DNA from: Geotalea uraniireducens Rf4
Lineage (GTDB): Bacteria > Desulfobacterota > Desulfuromonadia > Geobacterales > Geobacteraceae
Direction: 5' to 3'
Assembly (NCBI RefSeq): GCF_000016745.1
Contig: NC_009483.1
Span: 4,170,001 to 4,202,000 of the forward strand
Length of the DNA: 32,000 nt
A model generated the notes under the pieces. It searched no databases and had not been told where the DNA came from. It saw only the letters and a list, made by a program, of their open reading frames with translations. A program made the position numbers and the translations under genes. This document shows, one piece after another, positions 1 to 29,782 of the stretch; position 1 is the stretch's first letter, and every line of letters begins with the position of its first letter.

Positions 1-357
1 GACGAGGGTTGGCGCAAGAATGGTCATGATCCGGGAGAGGACCCTGGCATCAGCCACGGCGTCCCCCCCCTCCAGGCCATGATCCCAGAACCGTATCCCC
101 CGGTCAGCCCCCATGGAGAAGGCAAGCCGCAAGGTGTCGTCAAGACGGGCGGGACCGACTGCAAGAACGGTCACCGTGGCGCCGACTCTGTCTTTAAGGC
201 AGAGCGCCTCTTCCAGGGCCGCAAGATCGGCCGGGTTCGGTACGCGCCTTAAGCCCCGGTCGCTGATGCCAGCGCCCCGCGTGATGACGCGGGCCGGGGG
301 GCGAGGATCACTGCTCTCCCGAAGGAGGACGAGTATGTTGAGTTTTTTCTGTGGCAT
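1..357 (-). CDS. etfB: Electron transfer flavoprotein beta subunit (EtfB/FixA-like). N-terminal 119 codons only; the 3' end runs off the window.
   Basis: Not in the ORF track because it is open to the window edge. Manual reverse translation from ATG at 357 gives MPQKKLNILVLLRESSDPRPPARVITRGAGISDRGLRRVPNPADLAALEEALCLKDRVGATVTVLAVGPARLDDTLRLAFSMGADRGIRFWD. This matches the usual EtfB N-terminal pattern (NP.D..ALEEAL.LK ... V.V...GP ... A.AMGADR). Confidence 0.8.
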   Translation of the reverse strand, partial: MPQKKLNILVLLRESSDPRPPARVITRGAGISDRGLRRVPNPADLAALEEALCLKDRVGATVTVLAVGPARLDDTLRLAFSMGADRGIRFWDHGLEGGDAVADARVLSRIMTILAPTLV

Positions 358-379
358 GGGTAACTCCTGAAATTAATTT

Positions 380-436
380 TGAATTATGAATGTTGAATTT
401 TGAATTAAATTCAAAATTAAGAGTTCAAAATTCAAA
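380..436. repeat. Heptamer tandem array (TGAATTN x4) abutting an inverted array (AATTCAA-like x4). The core is an 11-bp dyad, GAATTTTGAAT(T)/AATTCAAAATT.
   Basis: Read directly: tgaatta tgaatgt tgaattt tgaatta | aattcaa aattaag agttcaa aattcaa. It lies in the 86-nt gap between the fixX stop (444) and the etfB start (357). Confidence 0.8.
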
Positions 437-443
437 ATTGCCT

Positions 444-722
444 TTACGTCATTCGGTACGCGACGCCGAATCCTCCCCGCGGGTAGCGCCAGCGGGTGAA
501 GGCGTTCTTGTGGCAGACCACATAGCAGGTGCCGCATTCCAGGCAGCCGTCATGGACGAAGGTCATTATTTGCTCCTCCTCCGACCAGGTGTAGCAACGG
601 GCGGGACAGGAGTTGGTGCAGCCGCGATTGTCGCAGCCGACGCAGACCGCAGTATCGAGAACGATATGGGGTTCCCGGTCGATGGTGAAACTGGTGAAGT
701 CGAATATTTCGTCTATGTTCAC
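444..722 (-). CDS. fixX: FixX-type ferredoxin-like protein (partner of ETF-quinone oxidoreductase)
   Basis: The 92-aa ORF carries Cys clusters CVGCDNRGCTNSCPARC and CLECGTCYVVC. It has the size and motif layout of FixX. The GTG start overlaps the fixC stop (GTGA). Confidence 0.85.
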   Translation of the reverse strand: MNIDEIFDFTSFTIDREPHIVLDTAVCVGCDNRGCTNSCPARCYTWSEEEQIMTFVHDGCLECGTCYVVCHKNAFTRWRYPRGGFGVAYRMT

Positions 723-2017
723 AATGCCCTCCAGGCGGTCAGGGCGTCGGAGATGGCGTTCTTCAGGCCGACCCTCTCCTTCACCTCCCGCAGGATGAGT
801 TTGGGGATGCTCATCTTTGGGGTGCCGTCGATGCGGTAGATGTGTTCCATCATGCTGCAGACCAGTTCCGGGTACTCATTGTAGATCCGCTCGATGTGGA
901 GCATCTTGGGAGCGTTTCTGAACCCCTTCAGGTCCTTCATTACCCAGCTCAGGTCGAGCCGTTCCTTGTAGCGTTTGAGCGTTTTCAGGGAAAAGTCCTG
1001 CTGCTGATGCGCCTCGATGACGGTCTTTCCCGCCAGGATGCCGGAGTGGGAGGCCAGGTTGATCCCCTCCAGGTTGACGCCGGTGGCATTACAGAGCGCA
1101 GCGGCGTCGCCGGCGACCAGAATGCCGTTGCCGGCCAGTTCCGGAATCATGTTGTAGCCACCTTCGGGGATGACGTGTGCCGAATATTCCTGCAACCGTC
1201 CCCCCCGCACCAGCTTGGCCACCTGCGGTTGCTCCATGAACTCGTTGAGCAGGTCGTAGGGGGTCTTGCCACTGGTGCGCAGACTGGCCAGGTGAAACAC
1301 CAGGCCGATCGAAAGCGAATCGTAGTTGGTGTAGAGGAAACCGCCACCGCGAACACCGCCGGTGCAGCCGACGAACTCATTGGCAAAGCCCTGGTCCCGA
1401 ACCAGCCCAAAGCGATCGTCGATCATCTCTCGCGGCATGTCGATCAGCGCCTTGACACCCACAGCCATCTGATCGGCATTGAACTTGGGACGGCGCAATC
1501 CGGCCTTCTGGGCCGTGAACGACAGTACACCGTCGGCGGCGATCACCACCGGGGCCTTGATCTGTCCCGTGCGTCCCAGGATGGAGACCCCGGCGATCCG
1601 GTCGTTCTTGTAGATCAGGTCGTCCACCGTGGAACGGGTGATCAGGGTGGCGCCGGCTTTGACGGCCTCTTCGGCCAACCAGCGATCAAAGCGGGGGCGG
1701 AAGACGGTATAACCGTTGTAGGGGGCGCGGTCGAAGTTGGTGGTTTCATGCTGTACGTTGAAGCTGGCCTCCGCCGTCATGAAGGTTGTCCCCTTCTTGG
1801 CGATGTGCCGCTCCAGGGGCGCCTTGGTCCAGAAGTCGGGCATGAGCTCTTCGATGGAGGTCATGCGGTGCAGGATGCCGCCGAACATGTTCTTTTCGCC
1901 CGGAAATGTGCCGCGCTCAACAAGGGCCACGTCCAGCCCGGCCCGCGCCATGGTCAATGCGGCCGAGGAGCCGGCCGGTCCCGCACCGACTACGATTGCC
2001 TGATACTGTTTACTCAT
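719..2017 (-). CDS. fixC: FixC-type FAD-dependent ETF:quinone oxidoreductase
   Basis: 432 aa. The N-terminal dinucleotide fold is AIVVGAGPAGSSAALTMARAGLDVALVERG, with an internal GDAA motif (LVAGDAAALCN). The ATGA overlap with the etfA stop and the following fixX complete the context. Confidence 0.85.
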   Translation of the reverse strand: MSKQYQAIVVGAGPAGSSAALTMARAGLDVALVERGTFPGEKNMFGGILHRMTSIEELMPDFWTKAPLERHIAKKGTTFMTAEASFNVQHETTNFDRAPYNGYTVFRPRFDRWLAEEAVKAGATLITRSTVDDLIYKNDRIAGVSILGRTGQIKAPVVIAADGVLSFTAQKAGLRRPKFNADQMAVGVKALIDMPREMIDDRFGLVRDQGFANEFVGCTGGVRGGGFLYTNYDSLSIGLVFHLASLRTSGKTPYDLLNEFMEQPQVAKLVRGGRLQEYSAHVIPEGGYNMIPELAGNGILVAGDAAALCNATGVNLEGINLASHSGILAGKTVIEAHQQQDFSLKTLKRYKERLDLSWVMKDLKGFRNAPKMLHIERIYNEYPELVCSMMEHIYRIDGTPKMSIPKLILREVKERVGLKNAISDALTAWRAL

Positions 2018-3018
2018 GGCGCACCTCCGACGCTCGATTTAACCCGATCCAGGAGGCGCGGCAGCACCTCCTTCAGATCGGCCACGAACCCCTCGTCGGA
2101 GTTGGTGAAAATGGGAGCCTTGGCATCGCTGTTGACCGCCACGATCCGCTTGGAATCCTTGATCCCTCCCACGTGGTGCATGGAGCCGGAAATGCCGAGT
2201 GCCAGGTAGAGCCGCGGGACCACGGTCCGGCCGGTCTGGCCGACCATCCGCTCGAAGCCGGTCCACCCCAGGTCGTAAACGGGGCGGGTAACGCCATAGG
2301 AGACATTCAACAATTTGCAGAGTTCTTTGAACTGCTCAAAGATGGCCGGATCGCACCCCTTACCGACGCTGAAGATCACTTCCGCCTCGGTCAGATCCAC
2401 GGTCTGCGGATCGGGCGGAATCCGCTCGATGATCGTGCCGGTGGCTCCGGTCGGCAGGGCCGCCGGTTGCCAGGTGACCATTGCGGGCGTGGTTGCGGTC
2501 ACCGATGGCATCAGGACCTGGCTTAAGGAGCGGGTCGGTACGGTGATCACCAGGGGGCGGTTGCCGTCCCAATTCTTGGTCTCCGCGATCCGGCTGCCGA
2601 GGGCCTGGCGGGAGAAACGCACCCCTTCCGGACCACGGCGGCCGCTGACCACCTCGGTCATGATGGCGGCATCCAGCGCCGCCGCCACCACCGGCGCCAG
2701 GGTGGCACCCAGGTCGTTATGGGGAAGCACCAGGAGGTTGGCCGACTGCTCGGCCACGAGCTGCGCCAGTGCTTTGCCGAGCAGAACCGGCGCGTCGAGC
2801 AGGGACTCGCACCCGGCCATCCGGGTGATGGCCGGAGTACCATAGGTGCCGAATTGGGCTAGAGCCTCTCCCTCCGGGAGAACGGGAGTGACCGCCCCCC
2901 AGCTGCCGTCGATGAAGCCGGCCAGCCTGGCACCGTAGGAGAGGAGCCCCCGTCCGGTCTCACCGAGTTCGCCATCGGGGAGATCGGCAAAAACGAGGAT
3001 CTTAGCGGTGAAGGACAT
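2014..3018 (-). CDS. etfA: Electron transfer flavoprotein alpha subunit (EtfA/FixB-like)
   Basis: 334 aa. The C-terminal FAD-binding signature is LYLALGISGSMHHVGGIKDSKRIVAVNSDAKAPIF (compare GISGAIQH.AG...S..IVAIN.D..APIF). The start overlaps the upstream stop (ATGA). Confidence 0.88.
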   Translation of the reverse strand: MSFTAKILVFADLPDGELGETGRGLLSYGARLAGFIDGSWGAVTPVLPEGEALAQFGTYGTPAITRMAGCESLLDAPVLLGKALAQLVAEQSANLLVLPHNDLGATLAPVVAAALDAAIMTEVVSGRRGPEGVRFSRQALGSRIAETKNWDGNRPLVITVPTRSLSQVLMPSVTATTPAMVTWQPAALPTGATGTIIERIPPDPQTVDLTEAEVIFSVGKGCDPAIFEQFKELCKLLNVSYGVTRPVYDLGWTGFERMVGQTGRTVVPRLYLALGISGSMHHVGGIKDSKRIVAVNSDAKAPIFTNSDEGFVADLKEVLPRLLDRVKSSVGGAP

Positions 3019-4979
3019 CAGATCTCCCTCCCGATCTTGTGCCCTTCCCAGATGGCCATGTCCACCTTGCGGGGAGCAACGCAGTCGCCAATCCGATACA
3101 ACTCCGGCACCTTCCCTTTCAGGCTCATGTACAGGTCTTCCTCCACCTGCTGTCCCATGACCAGAACGATGGAGTCATAGGGACCCCAGTCGAACCAAAC
3201 GTTGGAGTAGACATTGAACCCCTTGACGGTCTTGGCACCTGCTTCACCGCCGACTTCCATCACGGCGATGTCGGGAGTAAAGGTGACCCCCTTCTGCAGC
3301 AGCCGCTGGCGTGACGAGTAGAGGTCCTGGGTCGGTCCCAGCTCTGCGCAGATGAAGAGGCTGGAGGTGATCATGTCGATCTTTTTCCCCTGGTTGGCCA
3401 GGAACTCGGCGGTCGCCGTGGCGCGCTGGTGTCCGTCGTAGTCGATCAGACAGACGTTCTGTCCCAGTTCGGCCTCACCGTTCAGCACCTGCAGGACATT
3501 GAAGATTGCCGGACCGTCGGCGCCACCCACCGGGTGCTTCTTGGGGATGCTGCCGGTGGCCACAATCACCACGTCGGGCTTCTCGGCCAGGAGCTGTTCG
3601 GTGGTCGCCTCAGCGCCAAGCTTGACGGTCACGCCGGCTTTGTCCACCTGACTCTTCTCGTTGCGGATGATGACGCCGAACTCGTCGCGGCCGGTCCCCT
3701 TCATGGCGGTCACCACCTGCCCACCCAGGCCCTCGTTCCGATCGATGAGGGTGACCTTGTGGCCGCGGCGGCCGGCCATCTTGGCGGCCCACATGCCGGC
3801 CGGGCCACCGCCGACGATGGTCACATTTTTCTTCACGCTGGCCTTTTCCAGGGTACCTTCACCCCACTCCTTTTCCCGGCCGACAGCCGGGTTCTGGACG
3901 CAGCCGAGCGTCTTGTTCATGCCGATCCGGCCGATGCACCCCTGGTTGCAGGCGATGCAGTAGCGGATGTCTTCCAGCCGACCTTCCTGCGCCTTCTTCG
4001 GGAGGAACGGGTCGCAGATGAGTCCCCGGCACATGCCGATCATGTCGGCCTGGCCGTTGGCCAGCACCTTCTCGGCCATGACCGGGTCGTTGATCCGGCC
4101 GGTGCAGAAGACCGGCAGCTTGATCCGCTCCCGGATGCCGGCAGCCAGCGGGATGGTGTAGCCGAGCGGGGTGTGCATGGAGCCTTCCACCAGGTAGAGG
4201 TTGTAGAAGGTGGCAATGGAGAGGTCCATGAAGTCGATAAGTCCCGAGGCCTCGAAGCGGGCGCAAATTTCCTGCACCTGGGCCAGGTCCAGGCCGCCTG
4301 GAATCATCTCGTCGGCGCACATCCTGATGCCGAGGGTGAAGTCGTTCCCCACCGCCTTGCGGACCGCAGCGATGAACTTGAGCGGTGCCCGCATCCGGTT
4401 CTCCAGGCTCCCGCCGTACTCGTCGTTGCGGAAGTTGGTGAGCGGCGACAAGAACTGGCGAGCCAGACTGGAATGGCCGAACTGCAACTCGATCCCGTCG
4501 AATCCACCTTCACGGACGTGAATGGCACTCTTGGCAAAATAGCGGGCCACTTCCTCGATATCCTCCGGTTCCATTGCCTTTGGCGTCTCCCGGAACAGGA
4601 CATCCGGAATCGGCGACGGTGCCCAGACCGGCAACCGGGAGATGCTGCCGTCACCCTGCTGGCCGTTGTGGTTCAACTGGGCGAAGATCTTGGCGTCATA
4701 CTGGTGCACGTAGTCGGTGATCTTCTTGAAGCCGGGAATCACCTCTGCATGGTAGACATCGATCAGCTTCTCGTAGGCCATGTCGGTCGGATGGACCGTC
4801 AACTCCTCGGTGATAATGAGACCGGCCCCCCCCTTGGCCCTCTCGCCCCAGTAGTACATCTGCCGTTCGCTGGGAAGATTGCCTATCGCCAGGTTGGTCA
4901 GGTGCGGCTGGAAGGAAATGCGGTTCTTCACCTCGGTCGTACCCAGCTTGAGGGGTGAAAACAGATTCGGGAACATCAT
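3018..4979 (-). CDS. Fe-S flavoprotein of the 2,4-dienoyl-CoA reductase / trimethylamine dehydrogenase / NADH:flavin oxidoreductase family (OYE-like FMN barrel + 4Fe-4S + ADP-binding domain)
   Basis: 653 aa. The OYE-like N-terminus is LFSPLKLGTTEVKNRISFQPH. The Cys motif is YCIACNQGCIGRIGMNKTLGCVQNP. The second Rossmann motif is VTIVGGGPAGMWAAKMAGRRGHKVTLIDR. An AAGGAG RBS is present, and the gene starts 24 nt after the mftC stop. Confidence 0.8.
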   Translation of the reverse strand: MMFPNLFSPLKLGTTEVKNRISFQPHLTNLAIGNLPSERQMYYWGERAKGGAGLIITEELTVHPTDMAYEKLIDVYHAEVIPGFKKITDYVHQYDAKIFAQLNHNGQQGDGSISRLPVWAPSPIPDVLFRETPKAMEPEDIEEVARYFAKSAIHVREGGFDGIELQFGHSSLARQFLSPLTNFRNDEYGGSLENRMRAPLKFIAAVRKAVGNDFTLGIRMCADEMIPGGLDLAQVQEICARFEASGLIDFMDLSIATFYNLYLVEGSMHTPLGYTIPLAAGIRERIKLPVFCTGRINDPVMAEKVLANGQADMIGMCRGLICDPFLPKKAQEGRLEDIRYCIACNQGCIGRIGMNKTLGCVQNPAVGREKEWGEGTLEKASVKKNVTIVGGGPAGMWAAKMAGRRGHKVTLIDRNEGLGGQVVTAMKGTGRDEFGVIIRNEKSQVDKAGVTVKLGAEATTEQLLAEKPDVVIVATGSIPKKHPVGGADGPAIFNVLQVLNGEAELGQNVCLIDYDGHQRATATAEFLANQGKKIDMITSSLFICAELGPTQDLYSSRQRLLQKGVTFTPDIAVMEVGGEAGAKTVKGFNVYSNVWFDWGPYDSIVLVMGQQVEEDLYMSLKGKVPELYRIGDCVAPRKVDMAIWEGHKIGREI

Positions 4980-5003
4980 GATTAGTGGCTCCTTGAAGAT
5001 TTA

Positions 5004-6047
5004 TCAGGCGGCCTGCGCCGCTTTATTCGCGTCGGCAATGGAGGTCACGCAGCGCTCCAGGCACTCCGGGTCTCCGCCGTTGATGTCGTTTTTCAGGTGC
5101 CAGGCAACGGCCGGACAGCCGCCGTGGCACTGGTCGAAGCGGTTGCACTCCTCGCAGGAGTGGATCCGCAGGGAACGGAACGAGTCGTATATTTCCGAGC
5201 TGTCCCAGATCTCCTGGAAGCTCTGCTCCCGGAGCGAACCGGCCTTGAACCGGTCAGTCTGAAGAAAGGCACAGGGGTACATGTTGCCAGTGGGACCAAC
5301 ACAGCAGGTCAGCTTGGCCGCACCGCAGAGGTTCAAGCCCAGCCCCTGCCGCTCCTGTGAGGTCAGGGAGAAGAAGCTGTCGCCGGTCCGAACATCGCCG
5401 CTCTTGGCCAGCCAGTCGGAGAATGCGAGCAGCTGGGCCGGTGTCGGCCGGAGTTCTTCCCAGTTGTCCGCCCCCCGCCCGGACGGACGGAAGCGGCTCA
5501 CCCGCAGCGACACGCCGAGGGAGTGTGCCATCTCGTACATGGCCGGGATCTGGCTGGCGTTCTGGGTAGTGAGAACAGTATTGATGCTGGTCGGGATCGA
5601 GGTGGCGGCCAGAAGTTTGATCGCCTCGATGGCCTTGTGGTAAACACCTTTGCCGCGGATGGCGTCGCAGGTTTCCGCTGTGGCACCATCCATGCTGACC
5701 TGGATGGCAACCAGCCGGGTCGTGGCCAGACGGGCGACCCGCTCGGCATTGAGCAGGGTCCCGTTGGTGGAGATGCAGGTCATGATGCCCCGGCCATGAC
5801 AGGCGACCAGGATCTCTTCAAAATCGGGACGGAGAAACGGTTCGCCGCCGCCGAAATTGATCTGGAAGACTCCGGCCTGGTGGACTTGCTCCACCAGGTC
5901 GAGGGCTTCGGCCGTGGAGAGCTCGCCAGCGGCGGGCTCTCCGGAAGACGAAAGACAGTGGGTGCAGCGGAGGTTGCAGGCCAACGACACTTCCCAGGTC
6001 AAGTTCACCGGGGAACGAAGCCCCAGTTCGACATATCTATTGCTCAC
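5004..6047 (-). CDS. mftC: Mycofactocin radical SAM maturase MftC (radical SAM + SPASM domain)
   Basis: 347 aa. The CxxxCxxC motif is SLACNLRCTHC. The SPASM Cys motifs are CGAAKLTCCVGPTGNMYPC and CEECNRFDQCHGGCPA...DPEC. The GTG start overlaps the mftB stop by 11 nt. It lies directly downstream of MftA/MftB-type ORFs. Confidence 0.85.
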   Translation of the reverse strand: MSNRYVELGLRSPVNLTWEVSLACNLRCTHCLSSSGEPAAGELSTAEALDLVEQVHQAGVFQINFGGGEPFLRPDFEEILVACHGRGIMTCISTNGTLLNAERVARLATTRLVAIQVSMDGATAETCDAIRGKGVYHKAIEAIKLLAATSIPTSINTVLTTQNASQIPAMYEMAHSLGVSLRVSRFRPSGRGADNWEELRPTPAQLLAFSDWLAKSGDVRTGDSFFSLTSQERQGLGLNLCGAAKLTCCVGPTGNMYPCAFLQTDRFKAGSLREQSFQEIWDSSEIYDSFRSLRIHSCEECNRFDQCHGGCPAVAWHLKNDINGGDPECLERCVTSIADANKAAQAA

Positions 6048-6291
6048 GGAGAAACCCCTTTTCTAGAAGTTGGGTAACGAATTTCTGTAATGCCCGCTTC
6101 TGGTTGTCGGTCAGTCCCTCGGGGAGTTCATCCCTGTTGCGGACGGCCCCGTAGAAGTCTGCTGGAAGCAGCTTGCCGGTCTCGGCAAAGAGAAGGCGCG
6201 GCCCCCGTGAATCATAAAAAAGGAGGCCAAACCCTTCCTGCCGCACGCGACAAGCGGGGTGAAGTCGTATGCCTGCGCCTGCCGCTGCCAT
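6037..6291 (-). CDS. mftB: Mycofactocin precursor chaperone MftB (PqqD-family RRE protein)
   Basis: The track ORF 6037..6366 is trimmed to the internal ATG at 6291, which lies one base after the mftA TAA. The product is MAAAGAGIRLHPACRVRQEGFGLLFYDSRGPRLLFAETGKLL. This fits the MftB/PqqD pattern (L.P.v..R.E.FG.L.Y......L.F). Confidence 0.8.
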   Translation of the reverse strand: MAAAGAGIRLHPACRVRQEGFGLLFYDSRGPRLLFAETGKLLPADFYGAVRNRDELPEGLTDNQKRALQKFVTQLLEKGFLREQ

Positions 6292-6292
6292 G

Positions 6293-6400
6293 TTAGTAAA
6301 CCCCGCAGATGCCGTCGATTGCGAGCTCTTCAACCTGGATCTCTTCCAGAATCCGTGGCTCCTCATTACATGTTTCGTTTGTCTGTTTTTCAGTTTCCAT
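6293..6400 (-). CDS. mftA: Mycofactocin precursor peptide MftA (35 aa), absent from the supplied ORF track
   Basis: Manual reverse translation from ATG 6400 to TAA 6293 gives METEKQTNETCNEEPRILEEIQVEELAIDGICGVY. The C-terminal IDG.CGVY is the hallmark of MftA. AAGGAG lies 7 nt upstream of the ATG. Confidence 0.85.
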   Translation of the reverse strand: METEKQTNETCNEEPRILEEIQVEELAIDGICGVY

Positions 6401-6465
6401 TTTTCTTCTCCTTTAGAGTGTTCTTTTCTGCGCAGATTTCGTTGCGCGTTTTATATACGGTATTA

Positions 6466-6481
6466 TGCAACGCCGATGCCA
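6466..6481 (-). promoter_or_regulatory. sigma54 (-24/-12) promoter for the mftA operon
   Basis: The minus strand reads TGGCAT-CGGCG-TTGCA with correct GG-N10-GC spacing. It lies about 66 nt upstream of the mftA ATG. Confidence 0.7.
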
Positions 6482-6952: not shown

Positions 6953-8212
6953 TCATCCGAAGTACTTCCTGATGCAGGCCCCCAGCTTCCCCCGCAACAG
7001 TCCCTCATCCTCGCGGCAGAGCTCTTCGTAAAAGGACGCGGCATGTTCCAGAAAAAGATCCGCAATGGCCGGATCGAAGTGGGTTCCCCTTGATTCCCGG
7101 ATAATCCCTGTCGAAACGTCGAAGCTGAAAGGTTTTTTGTAGGGACGCCTGGAGGTAAGGGCATCAAACACATCAGCTACGGCAAATATGCGTGCGTTGA
7201 GCGGAATGGCTTCCGCCGTCAGCCCCCCCAGGTAACCGCTACCGTCAAATTTCTCATGATGGCAGCGAACCACATCAACCGCATCCTTCAGCCAGTCATA
7301 GCTACAGACAATGTCCTCGCCGTGCCTCACGTGGGTCTTCATTATCTCGAATTCCTCATCGGTCAACTTTCCCGACTTGAGGAGGATCGAATCCGTGATG
7401 GCGATCTTTCCCACATCATGCAGGAAGGCCCCCTTGATCAGCCCCTGCATGGCAGTGTTCGAGAGCCCTAACTTCTCCCCGAGGCGTACCGAGTAGATCG
7501 TCACCCGGTAGTTGTGGATATTGGTGTCGCTGTCTCGTTTGGCGATGGCACTTCCCAGCACCTCCAACATACCGATATTAGCCTGCGCCAGAATGTGCGA
7601 GTAATCGATGAGTTTGCGGTTGAGCCGGATTATGAGCGGATACAGCGATAAGCTTGTCACGAAAATTACCAGCACAAGCAAGATGAGAGACCAGAGGGTT
7701 TGGCGTTTTATCTGCGTTATGATCTCTTCGGGCGCATGATAAATCCCTTCCATGTAACCGAGTTTGGTTCCCGTGCGGCTATTAATCGGGACAAATACCC
7801 TCAGGTAGGTCTCATTGCCCACCATCATCTTCTGGCGGCGCACTCCCCCCTTCCGGGCAAAGTCGGAAGTATGCTTGGGAAGCCTGGTTTCCACCGCTTT
7901 GGCAGAAGGTTTTACCACCTCGGCGATTTTGTTCGAGCCGGCGTCATAGAATTCGACCACGATGAAGTTGCCGCGGTCAAATATGTCATGAATCTTACGG
8001 TTGAGAAGCGCAAGGGTCTGCCCGGAAGGGAATCCCAGATAGGTGGTAAACTCGGCGGAGTAGTTCGCGGCCTCGGTTTCGGCCATATTAACAACGTGAT
8101 TGTCCAGTCGGGCATTGCCGAAATAATGGACCAACCCGCCGATCAATACCGACAAGACGAGCCAGACGGCCGCAAGCCTGAGTATCAGCCAGCGGTGGAG
8201 GTTATCAAACAT
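6953..8212 (-). CDS. Membrane-anchored sensor with a C-terminal HD-GYP domain (c-di-GMP phosphodiesterase type)
   Basis: 419 aa with two hydrophobic segments flanking a periplasmic-looking region. The HD motif is FLHDVGKI and the signature is HHEKFDGSGYLGG. Confidence 0.85.
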   Translation of the reverse strand: MFDNLHRWLILRLAAVWLVLSVLIGGLVHYFGNARLDNHVVNMAETEAANYSAEFTTYLGFPSGQTLALLNRKIHDIFDRGNFIVVEFYDAGSNKIAEVVKPSAKAVETRLPKHTSDFARKGGVRRQKMMVGNETYLRVFVPINSRTGTKLGYMEGIYHAPEEIITQIKRQTLWSLILLVLVIFVTSLSLYPLIIRLNRKLIDYSHILAQANIGMLEVLGSAIAKRDSDTNIHNYRVTIYSVRLGEKLGLSNTAMQGLIKGAFLHDVGKIAITDSILLKSGKLTDEEFEIMKTHVRHGEDIVCSYDWLKDAVDVVRCHHEKFDGSGYLGGLTAEAIPLNARIFAVADVFDALTSRRPYKKPFSFDVSTGIIRESRGTHFDPAIADLFLEHAASFYEELCREDEGLLRGKLGACIRKYFG

Positions 8213-8268
8213 TTATGGGTGCCCTCCTCATGTTTCCGGTTGTTTGGAGAAGGCGAGCAGACCGGCCG

Positions 8269-8685
8269 TCAGGATCCGGCCCCCCCGTTCTTCTGGAGAA
8301 ACGCGGCGAACTCCATGTCGATGCGGCTGATATGTTGAATCAACCAGGCGACCAGTGTCTGGTTTGTCTGGATAACAAGCGGCAACGTTGCCCCTTCCCT
8401 CCTGAACTGGGATTCCAGCCGATCAACGTCCTCGGTGAAGCGTGTGTGCTGCGCTTTGTGCGCATCATACCCGGGGTAGTTATGCCTGAGCTGGAGCCGC
8501 TCCTCGGCGGCAAAATGGGATTTGATATAGTCATCGAGAAACAGCAGGAGCCGCAGCACCTCATCCCTCCCTTTACCTTCGTTGCATGCGCTCAGCAGGG
8601 AGTCGAACCGGCTGAACAGCTCTTTGTGCTGATTGTCGATTTCCGCCACCCCGGTCGCCAGATTGTTATTCCATTCGATAGACAT
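8269..8685 (-). CDS. Bacteriohemerythrin-like protein
   Basis: 138 aa starting MSIEWNNNLATGVAEIDNQHKELF. It carries H....E, H...H and H....D spacing (IKSHFAAEE, HKAQH, LIQHISRID) typical of hemerythrin cation-binding domains. Confidence 0.85.
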   Translation of the reverse strand: MSIEWNNNLATGVAEIDNQHKELFSRFDSLLSACNEGKGRDEVLRLLLFLDDYIKSHFAAEERLQLRHNYPGYDAHKAQHTRFTEDVDRLESQFRREGATLPLVIQTNQTLVAWLIQHISRIDMEFAAFLQKNGGAGS

Positions 8686-8708
8686 GTAGTTCCTCCTTGT
8701 TTGGTTTA

Positions 8709-9326
8709 TTAAATTGATTCGTTCCTAGGTACGACATGTTTCCAGTTTACAAGATCGAGCCAGAAATATTCCTTCTGCGACAACTTCAGGAAGGCGGCCA
8801 CCACCTCCGGCATGAACATTCCTCCGGACTGAGCCTCGATCTGCCGGCAGATACGTTTCCTCTGGCCGAGAATGTTTCCCGATGTGCGCAGCAGCACCGC
8901 CACCCTGTCGGCCAGGTGCAGGATATGACTACCGAAAGGCGCCCCGCCACCCTGCCGTGGCCGGCCGTCGCCGTCATCCGACCTGACATGGTGGAAACGG
9001 ATTATGTCTGCCACGCCGGCTAGCGGCTCAAAGCTGCTCAGCAGGCGCCACCCCATCTCGGCATGGCTATGGGGATTGTGAAATTCGAACTGCATGGTTT
9101 GCATCCGCTCCTGACCGGATAGTGCACCGATGTCATGAAGCTTGCCGGCCAGAAGCAGCTCGTTGCGATGCTTCTGCGGCAACCCCAGCTGGGCGGCCAC
9201 GCTGTAGGCCACATAGGCGACCCGTTGGTGGTGATTGAAGAGCGCGGGGTTTACCAGATCAATAACGTCCGACAGACAGGTGATCAGATCGGAAAGCTGG
9301 ATGTGCACTTTCTTTTTAACGAGCAT
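8709..9326 (-). CDS. HD-domain protein with a degenerate HD-GYP signature
   Basis: 205 aa with HHQRVAYVA and KLHDIGAL. It has FHHVRSDDGDGRP where HD-GYP enzymes have HHE.xDGSGYP. Confidence 0.7.
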   Translation of the reverse strand: MLVKKKVHIQLSDLITCLSDVIDLVNPALFNHHQRVAYVAYSVAAQLGLPQKHRNELLLAGKLHDIGALSGQERMQTMQFEFHNPHSHAEMGWRLLSSFEPLAGVADIIRFHHVRSDDGDGRPRQGGGAPFGSHILHLADRVAVLLRTSGNILGQRKRICRQIEAQSGGMFMPEVVAAFLKLSQKEYFWLDLVNWKHVVPRNESI

Positions 9327-9601
9327 GGGGCATTCTCTTTTTATCTGTCGCAGAAAAGCACCGCCCAGCGGCTTTATCGTGCGGTATTATTTTTAACAGG
9401 CCCAAAAATGACCAAAAAGGTCGTTTTTGTCAACATATTTCCTGCCAGGATTAAGGCACTTGATTTTTTGCAGAGGGGTTTTGCCTGGAATTGCTGAAAA
9501 CGAACCTTTTTCATTTGTAAAAACTCCCCGCTGCCTTGACACCTCAAGATTAAATTTTTTCCATTTGCACAGCAACGGTCTAATGGTAGATTATTAAATG
9601 A

Positions 9602-10165
9602 TTGAAGTTAAAACGTTTTAAACAAAAGCCACATAAAGAAAATACTCGCTCTGATATTTATTATATCGGCTTGCTCCTGTTTTTCTTTAGACTTGCGTCG
9701 GCAGGAACGGTGTGGGCGGAGGAGGCAAAAATGACCCGGAACGTATCCATGGATGAACTGGTGAAGTACGAAGTGCAGACCGCCATCAGTATGCTGGAGG
9801 CACTCCATGACAAAGTCCTGAAAAAGGAACTTTCCATGGAACAGGCAGAGAAACTGGGTGCCGACCTGTTGAGGAACCTTCGATACGGAGACAAGAACGA
9901 GGGGTATTTCTGGGCCGACACGCCGGAGGGTGTAAATGTCGTTCTGTACGGCAGGAAGGATGTAGAGGGGAAGAGCAGGTACGAAGCCAACATTATGGGA
10001 GTGGATTACGTCAAGGAGATTATAGCCAAGGGGTTGCAGCCGAACGGCGGATTCTCGGATTACTGGTTCACGAAAATGGGCGGAACGGAGTTAGTGCCGA
10101 AGCGCGCATATACCCTCCAGTTCAAACCGTTCGGATGGATTGTCGGAACTGGATACTATCCTTAA
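9602..10165 (+). CDS. Stand-alone Cache (sCache_2-like) sensor-domain protein with a putative signal peptide. The start is uncertain (TTG 9602, or ATG 9731 with a strong GGAGGAGG RBS).
   Basis: 187 aa. It shows Cache_2-like motifs (AISMLEALH, LRYGDKNEGYFWADT, GWIVGTGYY). It ends right after GTGYYP, where sensor proteins normally continue into a TM helix. Confidence 0.6.
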   Translation: MKLKRFKQKPHKENTRSDIYYIGLLLFFFRLASAGTVWAEEAKMTRNVSMDELVKYEVQTAISMLEALHDKVLKKELSMEQAEKLGADLLRNLRYGDKNEGYFWADTPEGVNVVLYGRKDVEGKSRYEANIMGVDYVKEIIAKGLQPNGGFSDYWFTKMGGTELVPKRAYTLQFKPFGWIVGTGYYP

Positions 10166-10554: not shown

Positions 10555-12480
10555 TTATTTGTTTACAGTTCCTTTCTTGTGACTGGCCGGCAAAAGCACC
10601 GTAAACTGCGTTCCTTCTCCGGGCCGGCTTTCCACCTGGATCTCGCCGCCATGACGCTTGATGATATTATACGTCAGGGCCAGGCCGAGGCCGATCCCCT
10701 TGCCGACCTCTTTGGTTGTAAAGAAGGGGTCCCAGATCCGGTCGATCTTATCCTGTGCGATACCGCAGCCGGTATCACGGATCCTGACGGAAACCGTCGT
10801 GTCATCCAGGTTCTCCGTCGTCAATTCCACCAGACCGGTCCCTTTGATCGACTGGTGGGCGTTTATCAGCAGGTTCATGCAGACCTGCCGCAATCCGGAC
10901 GGATCACCCAGGACAGAGTGGAGGTCTTTGCTCAGATGGGTAACGACTTCAATCTGTCGATAGATCTGCTGGTGCCGCAACAGCTCAAGAATTTCCAGCA
11001 GGACCACGTTCATATCCACCTCGACAGCAGAACCGTCCGATTTCCTGCTGAAACTGAGCAGGTGGTCGATGATCCCCTTGCAGCGGTAGGACTCCCGGAC
11101 GATTACTTCGAGGTAGTGCGGAAAGACATCCAGCCGGCAATCATCTTTCAAGGCCGGTTCGTCACGGAAACGCCTCAAAAGCCCTTCTGCGTAGCCCGCT
11201 ATCGAGGTGAGAGGGTTGTTGATTTCATGGGCGATTCCGGTGGCAAGCACGCCGATGCCCGACATTTTTTCGGTCTGGATCAGATGCATTTCCTGCAATC
11301 TTTTTTCCGAGATGTCCCTGAAAAAGACGAGTGCCCTGTTTTTCTCTCCCAGTGCGTCTTTGATGGGGGTGGCGGTTATGTCAAAATACAGGGTTTTTTG
11401 CCCTTCCCGTACGGAAACCTGAGACGTCTCCACCCGCTCGCCCCGGAGAGCCCTTTCGACGGGACAAAGTTGCGGCATGGATGGAGTTTCCGGATGAAAG
11501 ATGTCCCGGCAGGATTTCCCTGGAAGTATCTCCTTGGGATATAACTGCGGACTAATGAGATTATGATGCTGGATCAGGCCGTCATGGTCGTAGACCGTGA
11601 TACCGTCGCTGATCGAGTCGAAGATCGCCTGAAGTTCGTTAGTTTTGTTTCTCAGCTCGACTTCGGCCTGTTTCCGCTCAGTGATATCCTGGGTCGTGCC
11701 GTAGAGCCGCACCACCTTGCCGGCACTGTTCACCGACGGCTCGACGATGGAATAGACCCACCGGCAGCTGCCCTCGCCGAACTGCAGGCGGTGTTCGATC
11801 TCATAGCTCTTGCCATGTTCGACACCCAGCCGCAGGTGCCACATGACGTTCTCACGATCTTCGGAATGTACCACGCTGGCAAAGGACTCCTGGGTGGCCT
11901 CGTCGCGGCTGAGATGCATGATGCGCAGCAGTTCGTCGGAGGCCTTCACCTCTGAGGTGGTCGGGTCGAAGCTCCAGGAGCCCACGTGGGTCATGGACTG
12001 GGCCTTGGCCAGGTTGTATTCGCTCTCCGACAGGGCCCGTTCGGCCAGTTTCTTCTCGGTTATGTCCACCAGCACGGCCAGACACTCTTCCCCCGATTCG
12101 GTGACCATGGCCTCAATACGCACAAATAGCGGCTGTTTGTCTCGCTGCGCAAGACCCAGCCGGCAGGTTTCCTTGCCTTGGCTGCAGAAGACCGTGGCGA
12201 GATAATTGACGAATACGAACCACTCATCATCGGCTACGAATTCCCCGAAACGCCTGCCCACCAGATCATTACGTTCGACACCCAAAAGGCGCACACCGGT
12301 CAGGTTGACCGACTGAATAACTCCTTCACGGTCGAAAGTAAAATAACCTACCGGAGCAAAATCGTAAAGCAGGGCGTACTTGTTCCTTGATGCCTCCAGT
12401 TCCTCCTGGAACTTGCGCAATTCCTCGATCTTCGTCTCCAACTCGAGTTGGTGAGCATGATTTTCACGGAATTGTTTCAA
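10555..12480 (-). CDS. Multi-PAS sensor histidine kinase (no receiver domain)
   Basis: 641 aa with an N-terminal coiled coil and repeated PAS-like blocks. The H-box is [18 protein letters not shown]. The HATPase N, G1 and G2 boxes are [17 protein letters not shown] and GKGIGLGL. Confidence 0.9.
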
Positions 12481-12609
12481 AGTTTGGTCACCTTATCATC
12501 TTCTTGTAGTTCACTCCAAGGGCGTCGGCGGTCCAGATGGAGACTCGACCATGGCGACGGTTACGGGAAACCAGGAGGCAGGATAGTTTGCCTTCGGCGG
12601 TGGCCGTTG

Positions 12610-14016
12610 TCACCAATGGCTGCGCCCGCCAGGGTCGAAACTCGGCTGACTGCCGCCACTTGTACCACGCTTATAGTAGTCCTTGGAATCATAGGTTTCC
12701 GCTGCTTTGGCTTCCTGCAGGCGTTTTTTGTCAATCGGATCTGCCCGGTCGGCATATATGTCTCGCAGCAGGTTTTCGACGACCATGCTCAGATCTTCCA
12801 CCGTTTTTACTACCTCCACCTTGTCGCAATATGCGCCGTAGATATCCATCAGACAGTCGCCGCGACTCCAGGTATCACGATCTTCCGGGGTAAGCCAGAG
12901 CATATAGCGGGCCTTCTCGCGGATCTCGTCCAGCACCCAGTCGTTGGCCTCGTCGTAGTTGTTGCGTGCATCTCCCAGGATGATAAAGGCCGGTCTCCCC
13001 CGCAGGTTTTCCAGATACCTTTTCTTGAAGTTCAGAAACACCTGGCCGAAACTGCTATTTTCATCCAGATCAACGATGTCCCCCTTGTCAATGGTTTCCA
13101 TCAGGTCGTTGACAGGCATGTTTGCCAGCATTTCTGTGATTTCCGCCACTTCCCGATTGAAGATGAAACTGCGGACATCCAGCATCTGATTATGCAGGGT
13201 ATGAAGAAGCAGCAGCATGAAGCGGGAGGCATGGCTCACGGAAAAGCTGACATCACACAGAACCACCAGTCGCGGTTTTTCCCTCCGTTTTCGACGTAAT
13301 GCCACCTGGAACGGCACCATGTCGTGACGGTAATTTTTCTGGATCGTCTTGATGACGTGGAGTTTTCCGCGATTCTGATTATTCTTCATCCGTTTCATAT
13401 CTTTGCGCAGACGCAGCATCATGCGGGAAACCACGTCCTGCATGGCGGCCTGCTCTTCAGGCGTAAAGGTGACGCCCCTGTTGGTGCTGTTGCTCTTGTT
13501 AAGCTCGATCGTGAGCGGATTCTGCGTATAGCGTCGCGACGGCCGGGGCGCTTTCGACTTTCCGCGGTACCCCTTCATCTGGACAACTATTTCAATACCA
13601 TCCGTGTCGTCCGGATCAATCTCTGTCAGGCTTTTCAGCTCGGCTAAATCTTCCGGATTGATATCGCTGTCAAGTTTGAGCAGCGGGCCGTTCTCATCGT
13701 GATCGTCACCCGGCAGTTGGTCGAGGTAGTTGAATTCCCCCTCCATGCCGATGATGGCGGCGTCCATGAGATCGGGAATATCGACGTCCGGGTCGACAGA
13801 CTGGAACCGGCTGAAAAAACGGTTGAAGACCTCATTGAATACCGGAATGTCATTGACATTCTTCACCAGAGTCAGACGCAGGAGCCGCCGGGTCAACCGG
13901 CGCCGTTCCATTCCGGCCAGCGCCAGGGCCTGGACCGCATCCAGGCTTTCACCTGGTGATACGCGGATGCCGCTTTCACGAAGAGCGGCGACGAAACGGG
14001 TGATTATTCGTTCCAT
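12610..14016 (-). CDS. VWA-domain protein of the CoxE type (partner of the MoxR/CoxD ATPase)
   Basis: 468 aa. The N-terminus is RFVAALRESGIRVSPGESLDAVQAL. A MIDAS-like VVLCDVSFSVS is present, along with the C-terminal block AFIILGDARNNY. It starts 2 nt after the MoxR stop. Confidence 0.75.
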   Translation of the reverse strand: MERIITRFVAALRESGIRVSPGESLDAVQALALAGMERRRLTRRLLRLTLVKNVNDIPVFNEVFNRFFSRFQSVDPDVDIPDLMDAAIIGMEGEFNYLDQLPGDDHDENGPLLKLDSDINPEDLAELKSLTEIDPDDTDGIEIVVQMKGYRGKSKAPRPSRRYTQNPLTIELNKSNSTNRGVTFTPEEQAAMQDVVSRMMLRLRKDMKRMKNNQNRGKLHVIKTIQKNYRHDMVPFQVALRRKRREKPRLVVLCDVSFSVSHASRFMLLLLHTLHNQMLDVRSFIFNREVAEITEMLANMPVNDLMETIDKGDIVDLDENSSFGQVFLNFKKRYLENLRGRPAFIILGDARNNYDEANDWVLDEIREKARYMLWLTPEDRDTWSRGDCLMDIYGAYCDKVEVVKTVEDLSMVVENLLRDIYADRADPIDKKRLQEAKAAETYDSKDYYKRGTSGGSQPSFDPGGRSHW

Positions 14017-14018
14017 GG

Positions 14019-15065
14019 CTAGCTCATTTCCTGCACAGCCAGTTCCGTAACCTTCTGCAGGTCTGTCTGGTGTTTGGCAATCACGCCGACGGTATTGGCT
14101 ACCACCTCCGGTGTAAGCTGTGTCGCCTTCATGATCGAAAGCACCTGTGCCCAGTCAAGGGTTTCGGAAACACTGGGGGGCTTGCGCAGATTCAGTTCGC
14201 GGGCCTTACGCAGGAATGCCACCATCTGCTGTGCCAGATCCCCGCAGAGGTCGGGGAATTTTGCCCGGACGATCGCTACTTCCCGCTCCAGCTCCGGATA
14301 ACCGATATAGAGATACAGGCAGCGCCGGCGCAACGCGTCGGAGATCATCCGCGTGCCGTTACTGGTCAGGATCGTCAGCGGCTTTCTCTTGGCCTCGATT
14401 ACCCCCAATTCGGGGATCGAAACCTGAAAGTCGCTCAGACACTCCAGAAGCAGCGCTTCGAATTCATCGTCGGAGCGGTCGATCTCATCGATAAGCAACA
14501 GCGAACGTTTTTCGGACAAGAAACTGCGCAGAATCGGTCGCTGTACCAGGAAATTTTTTGAAAAAAACAGGCTCTCTTCGGCAGAAAGACGCTCGACGGC
14601 TTCCCGCAGGTCAGCTGATACGGAGAGGTAGGTATCTAGCTGGGTACGCAGCAATTGGGTATAGAGCAGCTGTTTGCCGTACTCCCAATCATAGAGTGCC
14701 TTTCCCTCGTCGATCCCTTCGTAGCACTGCAGTCTCACCAGGGGAAAATCCAGGGCAGAGGAGAGGGCCTTGGCCAGGCCGGTCTTCCCTACACCGGGAG
14801 GGCCTTCGATCAGGATCGGCTTCTCCATGTGGATGGCCAGAAAAACGGCGGTGGCGATGGCATCGTCGGCGATGTAGCCACTTGTGTTGAGAAGATCCTT
14901 AACCCCTTGTTCGGTAATCATGATGGCCTCGTAACGTTGAATTTTATATCTGTTAGTACTGTCTTTCATTGCAATCTTTGCGCCGGCAAGAGAACATTGT
15001 TTTAGATATTCAGATGCGGTGCGGACAGCTAATAAAATAAGCCGCTGGCGCCCGGTGAGGGACAT
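14019..15065 (-). CDS. MoxR/CoxD-like AAA+ ATPase. The true start is probably the internal ATG at 14969 or 14921.
   Basis: Walker A is LIEGPPGVGKTGLAKAL and Walker B is LLLIDEIDRSDDE. The size and the VWA partner downstream fit the MoxR family. Confidence 0.85.
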   Translation of the reverse strand: MSLTGRQRLILLAVRTASEYLKQCSLAGAKIAMKDSTNRYKIQRYEAIMITEQGVKDLLNTSGYIADDAIATAVFLAIHMEKPILIEGPPGVGKTGLAKALSSALDFPLVRLQCYEGIDEGKALYDWEYGKQLLYTQLLRTQLDTYLSVSADLREAVERLSAEESLFFSKNFLVQRPILRSFLSEKRSLLLIDEIDRSDDEFEALLLECLSDFQVSIPELGVIEAKRKPLTILTSNGTRMISDALRRRCLYLYIGYPELEREVAIVRAKFPDLCGDLAQQMVAFLRKARELNLRKPPSVSETLDWAQVLSIMKATQLTPEVVANTVGVIAKHQTDLQKVTELAVQEMS

Positions 15066-15124
15066 CTTCCCTCCGGGGCCAGCGGCATAAAATTACAAAG
15101 TCAGGCAACGAATTACTATAATAA

Positions 15125-16330
15125 TTACATGCACTGGTGGAAGATGCCGATCATATCCTGCAGACCGGTATCGGTTGGGTTGCCCTCTGTGCAGATATCG
15201 TTCACGGAGAAACGCGACAGGCCTTCTACGTCTTTTTCAAGCAGACCGAGATCCGTGAAGGTCTTGGTGATGCCCAGATCGGCTTTCAGTTCCAAACAAG
15301 CCTGAATAAATGCTTCGCCAGCTTTCATATCGGACATTCCGCTTACGTCAATACCGGCAGCCTGTGCCATCATCCTGAAGCGCTCCGGGCAGGCCGGCAG
15401 GTTGAACTTCATGACCGGACCGAGACCGATGGCATTGCAGAGACCATGAGGAGCATCGTACATACCGCCCAGAGCATGGGCCATACTGTGAATAAGGCCA
15501 AGACCGGCGCTGTTGAAGCTGTAGGCGGCGGCCATTTCAGCCCATACCATCGCCTCGACAGCTTTGTCGTTGTTTCTGTTCATTGCCGATTGACGCAGGT
15601 TGCCGAAGATCAGCGAAATGGCGCTCAGGCCGGGGCCGTATGCGGAGACAACACCCAGACGGGATGTGATTGCTTCAACGCCGTGAGCAAGGGCATCCAT
15701 GCCGGTGTAACCGGCCAGGTCGCCAGACATACACTGGTGGATCAGCGGGTCATTGACGGATTTGCTGGGTGTACAGTTGGGATCGAACAAGGCCATCTTG
15801 TACTTCTTGTCGGTATGGTTGATGATCGAGAAGCAGGACACTTCCGAACCGGTACCTGAAGTGGTGTTGATGGCAAGCTGGGGAATCGTGTTGGCCTTGG
15901 TTGCCTTGAAAGCACCTTCAAAGCTTCTGACATCCTGACCGTCATGGCTGTGAACGAGTTTGATGGCCTTGCAGCAGTCGTGGGAGCTGCCGCCGCCGAG
16001 GCTGATGATACCGTCGAATTTGCCGGCGGCCAATACCTTGGCGCCTGCCATGACTTCATGATCTTTCGGGTTCGGTGTAACTTTGTCAAACACCTCGGAA
16101 GCAACCCCGGCAGCCTTCAGTACGCCCTGGATTGTCTCGACAATGCCGGTGCCGCGCAGGCCGGTAGTTACGATCAGCGCATTGGTCATACCCAGCGCCT
16201 TGGCGTCATTGCCAACCATCGTATGTGCACCCCAACCGACATTTACGGAAGGATATGCGTGCATCATCTTGATCGGGTATTCCAGCCTTTCGTTCTTCAG
16301 GGTCCGTTTTACATCTTTGTTGTGAGACAT
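15125..16330 (-). CDS. Iron-type (group III) alcohol dehydrogenase, paralog 1 (ADH1)
   Basis: 401 aa with GGGSSHDCCKAI and metal-site histidines (DALAHGVE, LIHSMAHALGGMYDAPHG). An AAGGAGGAAG RBS is present. The N-terminal region (YPIK...GWGAH...LIVTTGLRGTGI) reminds me of the nicotinoprotein methanol/NDMA-dependent subgroup, but this is not verified. Confidence 0.88.
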   Translation of the reverse strand: MSHNKDVKRTLKNERLEYPIKMMHAYPSVNVGWGAHTMVGNDAKALGMTNALIVTTGLRGTGIVETIQGVLKAAGVASEVFDKVTPNPKDHEVMAGAKVLAAGKFDGIISLGGGSSHDCCKAIKLVHSHDGQDVRSFEGAFKATKANTIPQLAINTTSGTGSEVSCFSIINHTDKKYKMALFDPNCTPSKSVNDPLIHQCMSGDLAGYTGMDALAHGVEAITSRLGVVSAYGPGLSAISLIFGNLRQSAMNRNNDKAVEAMVWAEMAAAYSFNSAGLGLIHSMAHALGGMYDAPHGLCNAIGLGPVMKFNLPACPERFRMMAQAAGIDVSGMSDMKAGEAFIQACLELKADLGITKTFTDLGLLEKDVEGLSRFSVNDICTEGNPTDTGLQDMIGIFHQCM

Positions 16331-16535: not shown

Positions 16536-16551
16536 AGCAAGTTAGATGCCA
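16536..16551 (-). promoter_or_regulatory. sigma54 promoter for ADH1
   Basis: The minus strand reads TGGCAT-CTAAC-TTGCT, about 205 nt upstream of the ATG at 16330. Confidence 0.65.
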
Positions 16552-17940: not shown

Positions 17941-18040
17941 ACGCAACGACGCGACGACGCAACGTTTTAAAACCATGAACCATAATTTTAAAATGCCTTT
18001 CGTCGCGTCGTCGCGTCGTCGCGTCGTCGCGTCGTCGCGT
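17941..18040. repeat. Octamer arrays in inverted orientation: (ACGCAACG, ACGCGACG, ACGCAACG), a 36-nt AT-rich spacer, then (CGTCGCGT)x5
   Basis: Read directly. Five perfect CGTCGCGT units span 18001-18040. Three complementary units span 17941-17964, and the two variant units would give G-U pairs in RNA. The locus lies inside the predicted 5' leader of the rSAM/SPASM gene. Confidence 0.85.
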
Positions 18041-18064: not shown

Positions 18065-18080
18065 TGCAACGCCGGTGCCA
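18065..18080 (-). promoter_or_regulatory. sigma54 promoter for the rSAM/SPASM gene
   Basis: The minus strand reads TGGCAC-CGGCG-TTGCA, a perfect consensus. It differs from the mftA promoter at one base and has the identical CGGCG spacer. Confidence 0.7.
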
Positions 18081-18904: not shown

Positions 18905-19015
18905 GTTCGAGGTTCGAGGTTCGAGGTTCGAGGTTCGAGGTTCGAGGTTCGAGGTTCGAGGTTCGAGGTTATTTTTGCTTTTCAACATCGAACCTCGAAC
19001 GTAGAACGTAGAACC
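18905..19015. repeat. Heptamer array (GTTCGAG)x9, perfect over 63 bp, then a 20-nt AT-rich spacer and an inverted degenerate array (ATCGAAC CTCGAAC GTAGAAC GTAGAAC)
   Basis: Read directly. It fills the moaA-MOSC intergenic gap (19027 to 18888). Confidence 0.9.
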
Positions 19016-22627: not shown

Positions 22628-22628
22628 C

Positions 22629-23881: not shown

Positions 23882-23897
23882 AGCAATAGGTATGCCG
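23882..23897 (-). promoter_or_regulatory. sigma54 promoter for the ADH2-kinase-regulator operon
   Basis: The minus strand reads CGGCAT-ACCTA-TTGCT, with GG and GC correctly spaced. It lies about 90 nt upstream of the ATG at 23792. The flanks resemble the ADH1 promoter (ATAGCAA.T.G.TATGCC). Confidence 0.55.
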
Positions 23898-24177: not shown

Positions 24178-24193
24178 TGGCACTCACGTTGCA
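24178..24193 (+). promoter_or_regulatory. sigma54 promoter, perfect consensus, facing the porin operon
   Basis: TGGCAC-TCACG-TTGCA on the plus strand. It lies about 450 nt upstream of the porin ATG at 24647. Confidence 0.65.
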
Positions 24194-29680: not shown

Positions 29681-29761
29681 GTTTTATGAGTTTTATGAGT
29701 TTTATGAGTTTTATGAGTTTTATGAGTTTTATGAGTTTTATGAGTTTTATGAGTTCGATGA
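29672..29761 (+). repeat. Nonamer tandem array (GTTTTATGA)x9 perfect plus one degenerate unit. The first unit contains the hdrC stop codon.
   Basis: Read directly with a period of 9 nt. Units start at 29672+9k for k=0..8, followed by GTTCGATGA. Confidence 0.9.
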
Positions 29762-29782
29762 GTTATGGTGTTGAACCCATGT

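Follow-up and report, generated by a model that had tools for sequence, protein, structure and literature searches.

In the PQQ system, a short precursor (PqqA), a small peptide-binding chaperone (PqqD) and a radical SAM/SPASM enzyme that introduces a C-C cross-link (PqqE) together lead to a redox cofactor, and the mycofactocin (Mft) system follows the same logic. In mycobacteria, MftB binds the precursor MftA, and MftC decarboxylates and cyclises its C-terminal Val-Tyr to AHDP; AHDP is then freed by MftE and deaminated by MftD to premycofactocin, and MftF adds glucose units (PMC11778925). Among the genomes with this system, the radical SAM enzyme, the glycosyltransferase and the peptide always co-occur, MftD, MftE and MftR are present in most but not all species, and MftA was described as a "missed gene call"; Geotalea uraniireducens Rf4 was one of these genomes, and its cluster was drawn in Figure 2 of that study (Haft 2011, PMC3023750).

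Canonical actinobacterial precursors (TIGR03969), such as those of the plasmid copies in Tsukamurella and Mycolicibacterium (...LVEEVSIDGMCGVY), are encoded in mftR-ABCDEFG clusters. A variant type, modelled by NF040489, is represented by WP_083764939.1 and by WP_145022245.1 of Geobacter argillaceus. The DNA considered here, referred to as the window, is the whole analysed stretch of 32,000 nucleotides from G. uraniireducens Rf4 (NC_009483.1, positions 4,170,001 to 4,202,000), and its left part carries a mycofactocin locus of the variant type.

The precursor gene mftA

The features at the start of this locus are as follows.

6408..6413 (-): Shine-Dalgarno sequence AAGGAG of mftA, read from the sequence, 7 nt 5′ of the ATG
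6293..6400 (-): mftA, 35-aa variant-type mycofactocin precursor (start ATG 6400..6398, stop TAA 6295..6293), assigned by HMM scores, RefSeq identity and conservation
6037..6291 (-): mftB, 84-aa precursor-binding chaperone (TIGR03967, 68.1 bits, cut-off 33)
5004..6047 (-): mftC, 347-aa radical SAM/SPASM maturase with a GTG start (TIGR03962, 353.1 bits, cut-off 265)

Reading and translating the minus strand over 6293..6400 gives an ATG-to-TAA ORF of 35 codons with the product METEKQTNETCNEEPRILEEIQVEELAIDGICGVY. An earlier note on this DNA had proposed exactly this ORF and translation as an MftA gene, with an AAGGAG ribosome-binding site and a TAA one base from the ATG of an MftB-like gene, and all of these are present in the sequence, the single intervening base being C6292, before the mftB ATG (6291..6289). 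The peptide comprises a variable leader followed by a conserved recognition/core region (EEPRILEEIQVEELAIDGICGVY), and its end, ...AIDGICGVY followed at once by the stop codon, agrees with the IDG[MI]CGVY-stop pattern of MftA. It passes the MftA model TIGR03969 (43.7 bits, curated cut-off 25), the variant-type mycofactocin precursor model NF040489 (47.4 bits, cut-off 30) and the Pfam MftA family PF23709 (27.3 bits, gathering score 27), and the HMM E-values of 1.7e-12 and 1.7e-11 are well beyond chance. The searches with MftA, MftB and MftC models that the note had suggested thus all gave scores above the cut-offs. A Mycobacterium-type MftA, used as a control, passed TIGR03969 (52.7 bits) but failed NF040489 (18.2 bits, cut-off 30), which shows that NF040489 singles out the Geobacter type.

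An exact-sequence look-up showed that the peptide does not differ from WP_083764939.1, the "variant-type mycofactocin precursor" of G. uraniireducens, so that the MftA reading and the RefSeq name coincide. This database entry has a WP accession only, whereas the neighbouring products have both ABQ (GenBank) and WP (RefSeq) accessions, which suggests that mftA was missed by the original annotation. On the family matches, mftA is assigned as a real gene and a member of the MftA family, in its Geobacter variant-type subgroup. It is also already known: since RefSeq already includes the exact peptide and the cluster of the same strain was reported in 2011, the finding is correct yet not new, and it adds nothing as a gene call. 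The case nevertheless shows that length-filtered ORF tracks overlook small RiPP precursor genes.

As the note had pointed out, the mechanical ORF list instead contains an over-extended ORF at 6037..6366 (109 aa), in the mftB frame, that overlaps mftA. It is the longest ORF of its frame, and the small ORF could accordingly be a chance occurrence within an MftB gene bearing an N-terminal extension. The deposited and RefSeq MftB, however, is the 84-aa form (exact sequence ABQ27715/WP_011940374, named MftB), and the TIGR03967 alignment begins at residue 7 of that form. The comparison with relatives bears on the same question. It covered 80 Desulfuromonadales loci, one genome being taken per species, in which MftC is 72-97% identical to that of the window. 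An ORF ending in DGICGVY-stop occupies the equivalent position in each of the 76 loci whose sequence reaches upstream of mftB; the conservation of the reading frame in related genomes, proposed earlier as a check, is therefore borne out.

The last 22 codons were compared in 77 copies (the 76 loci and the window copy, 75 distinct DNA sequences). Variable columns fall at 11 first, 4 second and 22 third codon positions, and the codon differences from the window copy comprise 536 synonymous and 87 nonsynonymous changes. The stretch EELAIDGICGVY is identical in 76 of the 77 copies and the C-terminal 12 residues are near-invariant, while the N-terminal leader is free to vary in sequence and length (26-50 aa). 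A GGAG/GAGG/AGGA motif lies 5′ of the chosen mftA ATG in all copies but one (76/77), and the stop-N-ATG junction between mftA and mftB is kept in every copy (77/77). The C-terminal 22 residues of MftA are under strong purifying selection, and the overall pattern, at the level of sequence, is characteristic of a translated RiPP precursor. The substitutions track the mftA frame, in which every third position is variable and only four second positions are; together with the conserved junction, this rules out that the 109-aa ORF is the true gene, and an extended MftB with a fortuitous small ORF is given next to no credence.

In its short, acidic leader, its C-terminal IDGxCGVY, its position directly before mftB/mftC and the presence of MftF, the window peptide resembles actinobacterial MftA. 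It differs in having Ile instead of Met in the core (IDGICGVY) and EEPRILEEIQVEELA instead of ELVTESLVEEVS in the recognition region. The MftA on plasmid pHTUR01 (NC_013744) of the archaeon Haloterrigena turkmenica also ends in IDGICGVY, and it is this peptide that matches the Geobacter-type peptides best by tblastn, in 74 loci.

The mycofactocin operon and its putative sigma-54 promoter

Downstream of mftC, the window contains an oxidoreductase gene and a set of electron-transfer genes, and a promoter-like site precedes mftA.

6466..6481 (-): putative sigma-54 (-24/-12) promoter TGGCATCGGCGTTGCA, an exact match to TGGCAY-N5-TTGCW, 66 nt 5′ of the mftA ATG
3018..4979 (-): OYE2, 653-aa mycofactocin-system FadH/OYE oxidoreductase 2 (TIGR03997, 1016.7 bits, cut-off 793)
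2014..3018 (-): etfA, FixB-like electron transfer flavoprotein (ETF) alpha (Pfam ETF and ETF_alpha; ABQ27712)
719..2017 (-): FixC-like ETF-quinone oxidoreductase (NF007542/NF007450, about 355 bits, below cut-off; ETFQO_UQ-bd domain)
444..722 (-): FixX-like ferredoxin (NF011993, 56 bits, below cut-off)
1..357 (-): 5′ part of etfB (ETF beta), the gene continuing leftwards outside the window

MftC, whose gene overlaps the end of mftB by 11 nt, has the Pfam Radical_SAM and SPASM domains and the CxxxCxxC motif in the form CNLRCTHC (exact sequence ABQ27714). It also matches many other radical SAM/SPASM maturase models, including PqqE (147 bits) and StsB (148 bits), which could point to an unrelated radical-SAM RiPP as the product of the peptide, for instance a PQQ-like or sactipeptide-like one. 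These scores are far under the cut-offs (381 for PqqE), TIGR03962 alone is exceeded by MftC, the peptide carries neither a PqqA nor a sactipeptide motif, and MftB and MftF are proteins confined to mycofactocin systems. The PQQ system is thus a different family, and an unrelated RiPP is extremely improbable here.

OYE2 (ABQ27713) combines an FMN (OYE) domain with an FAD/NAD(P) domain, and its gene lies 3′ of mftC in 69 of the 80 related loci. The best NCBIfam match of EtfA is mft_etfA, at 134 bits and under the cut-off of 240; the ETF subunits stay below cut-off for the "mycofactocin-associated ETF" models. The region beyond the left end was followed on a public contig (L001) that matches the window exactly in the genes they have in common, the 653-aa OYE2 included, and extends further. 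There, the full etfB is followed by the gene for MftF (TIGR03965, 381.8 bits, cut-off 280), so that mftF is located just outside the left edge of the window and the co-occurrence of MftF with MftA holds for this locus. On the same contig (3895..5291), the 35-aa mftA is called and the 84-aa mftB is not, leaving a gap from 4002 to 4248, the reverse of the usual failure.

In the conserved arrangement of the relatives, [radical SAM]-Fe-dependent alcohol dehydrogenase (Fe-ADH)-MadB-MadC-histidine kinase is followed by mftA-mftB-mftC-OYE2-etfA-fixC-fixX-etfB-mftF-AFOR, a synteny that extends across the Desulfuromonadales. The actinobacterial cluster differs in that it contains mftD, mftE, mftG and mftR, whereas the cluster of the window is without these genes and has OYE2-etfA-fixC-fixX-etfB between mftC and mftF. 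The conserved unannotated neighbours, namely a 205-aa ORF after AFOR and ORFs of 67 and 72 aa, gave no Pfam or NCBIfam match, and therefore no candidate peptidase comes from them.

Control also differs between the two types, with a TetR regulator (MftR) in the actinobacterial clusters and a predicted sigma-54 promoter in the window cluster. In 72 of 73 relatives, GGCAY-N5-TTGCA stands at a corresponding distance before mftA, and the site at 6466..6481 is taken to act as a promoter. It is highly probable (roughly 0.93) that mftA is a mycofactocin precursor gene standing first in a sigma-54-dependent operon, mftA-mftB-mftC-OYE2-etfA-fixC-fixX-etfB-mftF.

Further sites of this kind occur elsewhere in the window.

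16536..16551 (-): exact sigma-54 site before the Fe-alcohol dehydrogenase/MadB/MadC genes
18065..18080 (-): exact sigma-54 site before the second radical SAM gene
24178..24193 (+): exact sigma-54 site before the ORF at 24647
23882..23897 (-): sigma-54 site with 1 mismatch, before the ErcA-like gene

The four exact sites in the window, including that of mftA, are all intergenic and correctly oriented. This arrangement suggests that alcohol oxidation and mycofactocin form one sigma-54 regulon. A sigma-54-dependent response regulator and a PAS histidine kinase are encoded at 20058..22669 (-); with the gene for an ErcA-like Fe-alcohol dehydrogenase, which comes first, they make up a set (20058..23792, minus strand) that resembles an alcohol-sensing regulatory module.

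Alcohol dehydrogenases and other neighbours

The earlier note had also held that the precursor gene anchors the interpretation of the whole left third of the window. This applies only to 1..6481; the block at 6953..10165 does not belong to the conserved locus, whereas conserved mycofactocin-linked neighbours are encoded to the right of it, at 10555..16330.

6953..10165: genes for an HD-GYP protein (419 aa), a bacteriohemerythrin, a second HD-domain protein and a Cache-domain protein, between the histidine kinase gene and mftA
10555..12480 (-): PAS sensor histidine kinase, whose counterpart adjoins mftA directly upstream in 38 related loci
12610..14016 (-): MadC-like VWA protein
14019..15065 (-): MadB-like AAA ATPase
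15125..16330 (-): Fe-dependent alcohol dehydrogenase
16798..17895 (-): second radical SAM protein, 365 aa, with a SPASM-like Cys-rich C-terminal region

None of the genes at 6953..10165 is present in the 80 related loci, and the block is a lineage-specific insertion. In 55 relatives, the same slot holds a divergent gene for a zinc-ribbon NUDIX (NudC-like) protein instead; an NADH pyrophosphatase was also flagged in the profiling study (Haft 2011, PMC3023750).

The Fe-ADH, MadB and MadC genes are kept upstream of mftA in 21-27 related loci, and the three at 12610..16330 constitute a candidate mycofactocin-dependent dehydrogenase module. The best match of the Fe-ADH (15125..16330) is to NDMA-dependent methanol dehydrogenase, at 301.7 bits and below the cut-off of 625, and the ErcA-like enzyme likewise falls short, with 421.9 bits against a cut-off of 550. 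Dependence on mycofactocin has been tied to a hot spot in the NAD site, TSNPKDYEVH (Haft 2011, PMC3023750), which the motifs of the two enzymes, TPNPKDHEV in the Fe-ADH and TPNPKDVEV in the ErcA-like protein, both fit. By this shared NPKD-EV motif, the two Fe-dependent alcohol dehydrogenases are likely users of the cofactor. The same arrangement in G. pickeringii has been linked to methanol use (PMC4358379).

The second radical SAM protein reaches no NCBIfam cut-off (the best score is ScmF, 111 bits against 400). Orthologues that are 47-53% identical are encoded upstream of Fe-ADH/MadB/MadC in at least 8 relatives, and no convincing precursor-like small ORF was found beside the gene in the window. 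Its leader, between the sigma-54 site and the gene, contains a perfect octamer repeat (TCGTCGCG, 5.1 copies, 18000..18040) and, downstream, three copies of ACGCAACG (17941..17964) that are partly complementary to the octamer; the two could form a hairpin. Further intergenic tandem repeats are located at 375..439, 18905..18970, 29672..29764, 29783..29942 and 30823..30915; they comprise the heptamers AATTTTG/AAATTCA between fixX and etfB, within the mft operon (375..439), 9.4 copies of GTTCGAG before moaA (18905..18970), the nonamers GTTTTATGA (10 copies) and AACTCAATA (18 copies) between HdrC-like and HdrB-like genes, and a 37-mer (2.5 copies). Rfam at gathering thresholds gave no match in the window.

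Maturation and recycling in the variant system

By clear orthology, the steps of MftB binding, MftC and MftF are probably carried over from mycobacteria: MftB would bind the conserved region of the peptide and present MftA to MftC, MftC would oxidatively decarboxylate the C-terminal Tyr and cross-link it to the penultimate Val to form the AHDP lactam, and MftF would glycosylate the phenol. For AHDP release, deamination and re-oxidation of the cofactor, the locus offers no identified catalyst, MftE, MftD and MftG being absent.

Family searches revealed no pre-mycofactocin synthase MftD (TIGR03966), MftE, MftG (a GMC oxidoreductase) or MftR in the window, nor on contig L001 beyond the left edge. 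Annotated MftD, E, G, R and M sequences from the plasmid-borne clusters of Tsukamurella, Mycolicibacterium, Thermomicrobium and Haloterrigena were then used as tblastn queries against the window and 80-82 related loci (about 1.3 Mb, that is, loci and not whole genomes), in which MftE, MftG, MftR and MftM had no match. The Creatininase Pfam family, to which MftE (TIGR03964) belongs, was not found on L001, L002 or L088, and regular expressions for the signatures GSxEQHG (creatininase) and SNHGGRQ (FMN_dh) had no hit in 1.32 Mb, the latter missing the MftD of L062, which reads SNHGGNN. A published table lists Geotalea uraniireducens with MftC (WP_011940373) and has NA for its other accessions, which we read as no MftG (PMC11778925, supplementary file 2).

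MftD was detected by tblastn in only 2 of the 80 loci, namely L062, with its gene divergent from mftA, and L031; it also follows mftF on a metagenome contig (L088) with the same operon and an MftC 84% identical to that of the window.

L062 7093..8259 (-): MftD
L031 19044..20206 (+): MftD, split over two frames
L088 10001..11197 (+): MftD

The L031 copy may be a pseudogene or reflect a sequencing error. These Desulfuromonadales MftD proteins are 70-83% identical to actinobacterial MftD, far better conserved than MftC (only about 42%), and horizontal acquisition of the sporadic copies is possible. A mutually exclusive distribution of MftD and OYE2/ETF was considered and rejected: L062 has MftD without OYE2/ETF, but L031 and L088 have both, and L017 and L064 lack both in the DNA examined, so that no clear pattern of replacement emerges. 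Thus, at the level of the cluster, the MftE, MftD and MftG/MftR components of a canonical mftABCDEF(G,R) set are wanting. Because MftE, MftG and MftR were in no case detected near these clusters and MftD is sporadic, we can only infer how this lineage carries out late maturation and re-oxidation; genes for the missing enzymes could lie elsewhere in the genome, or the end product could be unlike the mycobacterial MFT-n.

The latter idea amounts to a true MftA-family precursor that yields a different end product, or is completed by non-homologous late enzymes, in which case the label "mycofactocin" would overstate what is known of the mature molecule. It is favoured by the lack of MftE in the window and all 80 loci and the restriction of MftD to L062, L031 and L088, and by the separate variant-type model that NCBI keeps, which the canonical Mycobacterium-type MftA fails (18.2 bits against 30). 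In addition, no MftD named Geotalea or Geobacter was present among the best 120 homologues of two Desulfuromonadales MftD queries, a result that is suggestive, not conclusive. Yet the core has the canonical motif, IDGICGVY, the canonical MftA model is passed as well as the variant one, and MftF is retained. Some clusters of just this kind, moreover, do include MftD, which suggests that the chemistry is shared. The absence of MftD and MftE also rests on the loci and the best 120 homologues and falls short of proof. A different product is, on balance, rather unlikely, and the variant precursor is treated here as one of mycofactocin.

It is tempting to speculate that the OYE2-ETF-FixCX module compensates for the missing enzymes, as it is the obvious candidate for deamination and/or re-oxidation, with electrons passing to the quinone pool. 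In a tentative model, to which we assign a low likelihood, the Desulfuromonadales would mature and recycle the cofactor anoxically through OYE2-ETF-FixCX, with neither MftE nor MftG and, in most cases, no MftD. The flavoenzyme module would then perform an O2-independent oxidative deamination of AHDP, and alternatively or additionally would couple the re-oxidation of mycofactocinol to the menaquinone pool, taking the place of MftD/MftG under anaerobic conditions; release of the core would fall to some further peptidase. In Haloterrigena, genes for EtfB, a 4Fe-4S ferredoxin (FixX), a FixC-like protein, EtfA and an FAD-dependent oxidoreductase also lie beside mftF on pHTUR01 (L086, 10486..14918), so that the link between mycofactocin and an electron-transfer module spans domains of life. 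The archaeal cluster differs from that of the window in having mftE, an "MftB2"-type chaperone and the ETF block on the opposite strand.

To our knowledge, all mycofactocin biochemistry comes from aerobic Actinobacteria. Our literature search found no paper with the phrase "variant-type mycofactocin" and none linking mycofactocin with ETF/FixC. The remaining interest of the locus therefore lies in the variant system itself, that is, in how strict anaerobes would carry out release, oxidation and recycling when MftE and MftG are lacking and MftD is mostly absent, and in the part that the conserved OYE2-ETF-FixCX module may play in it.
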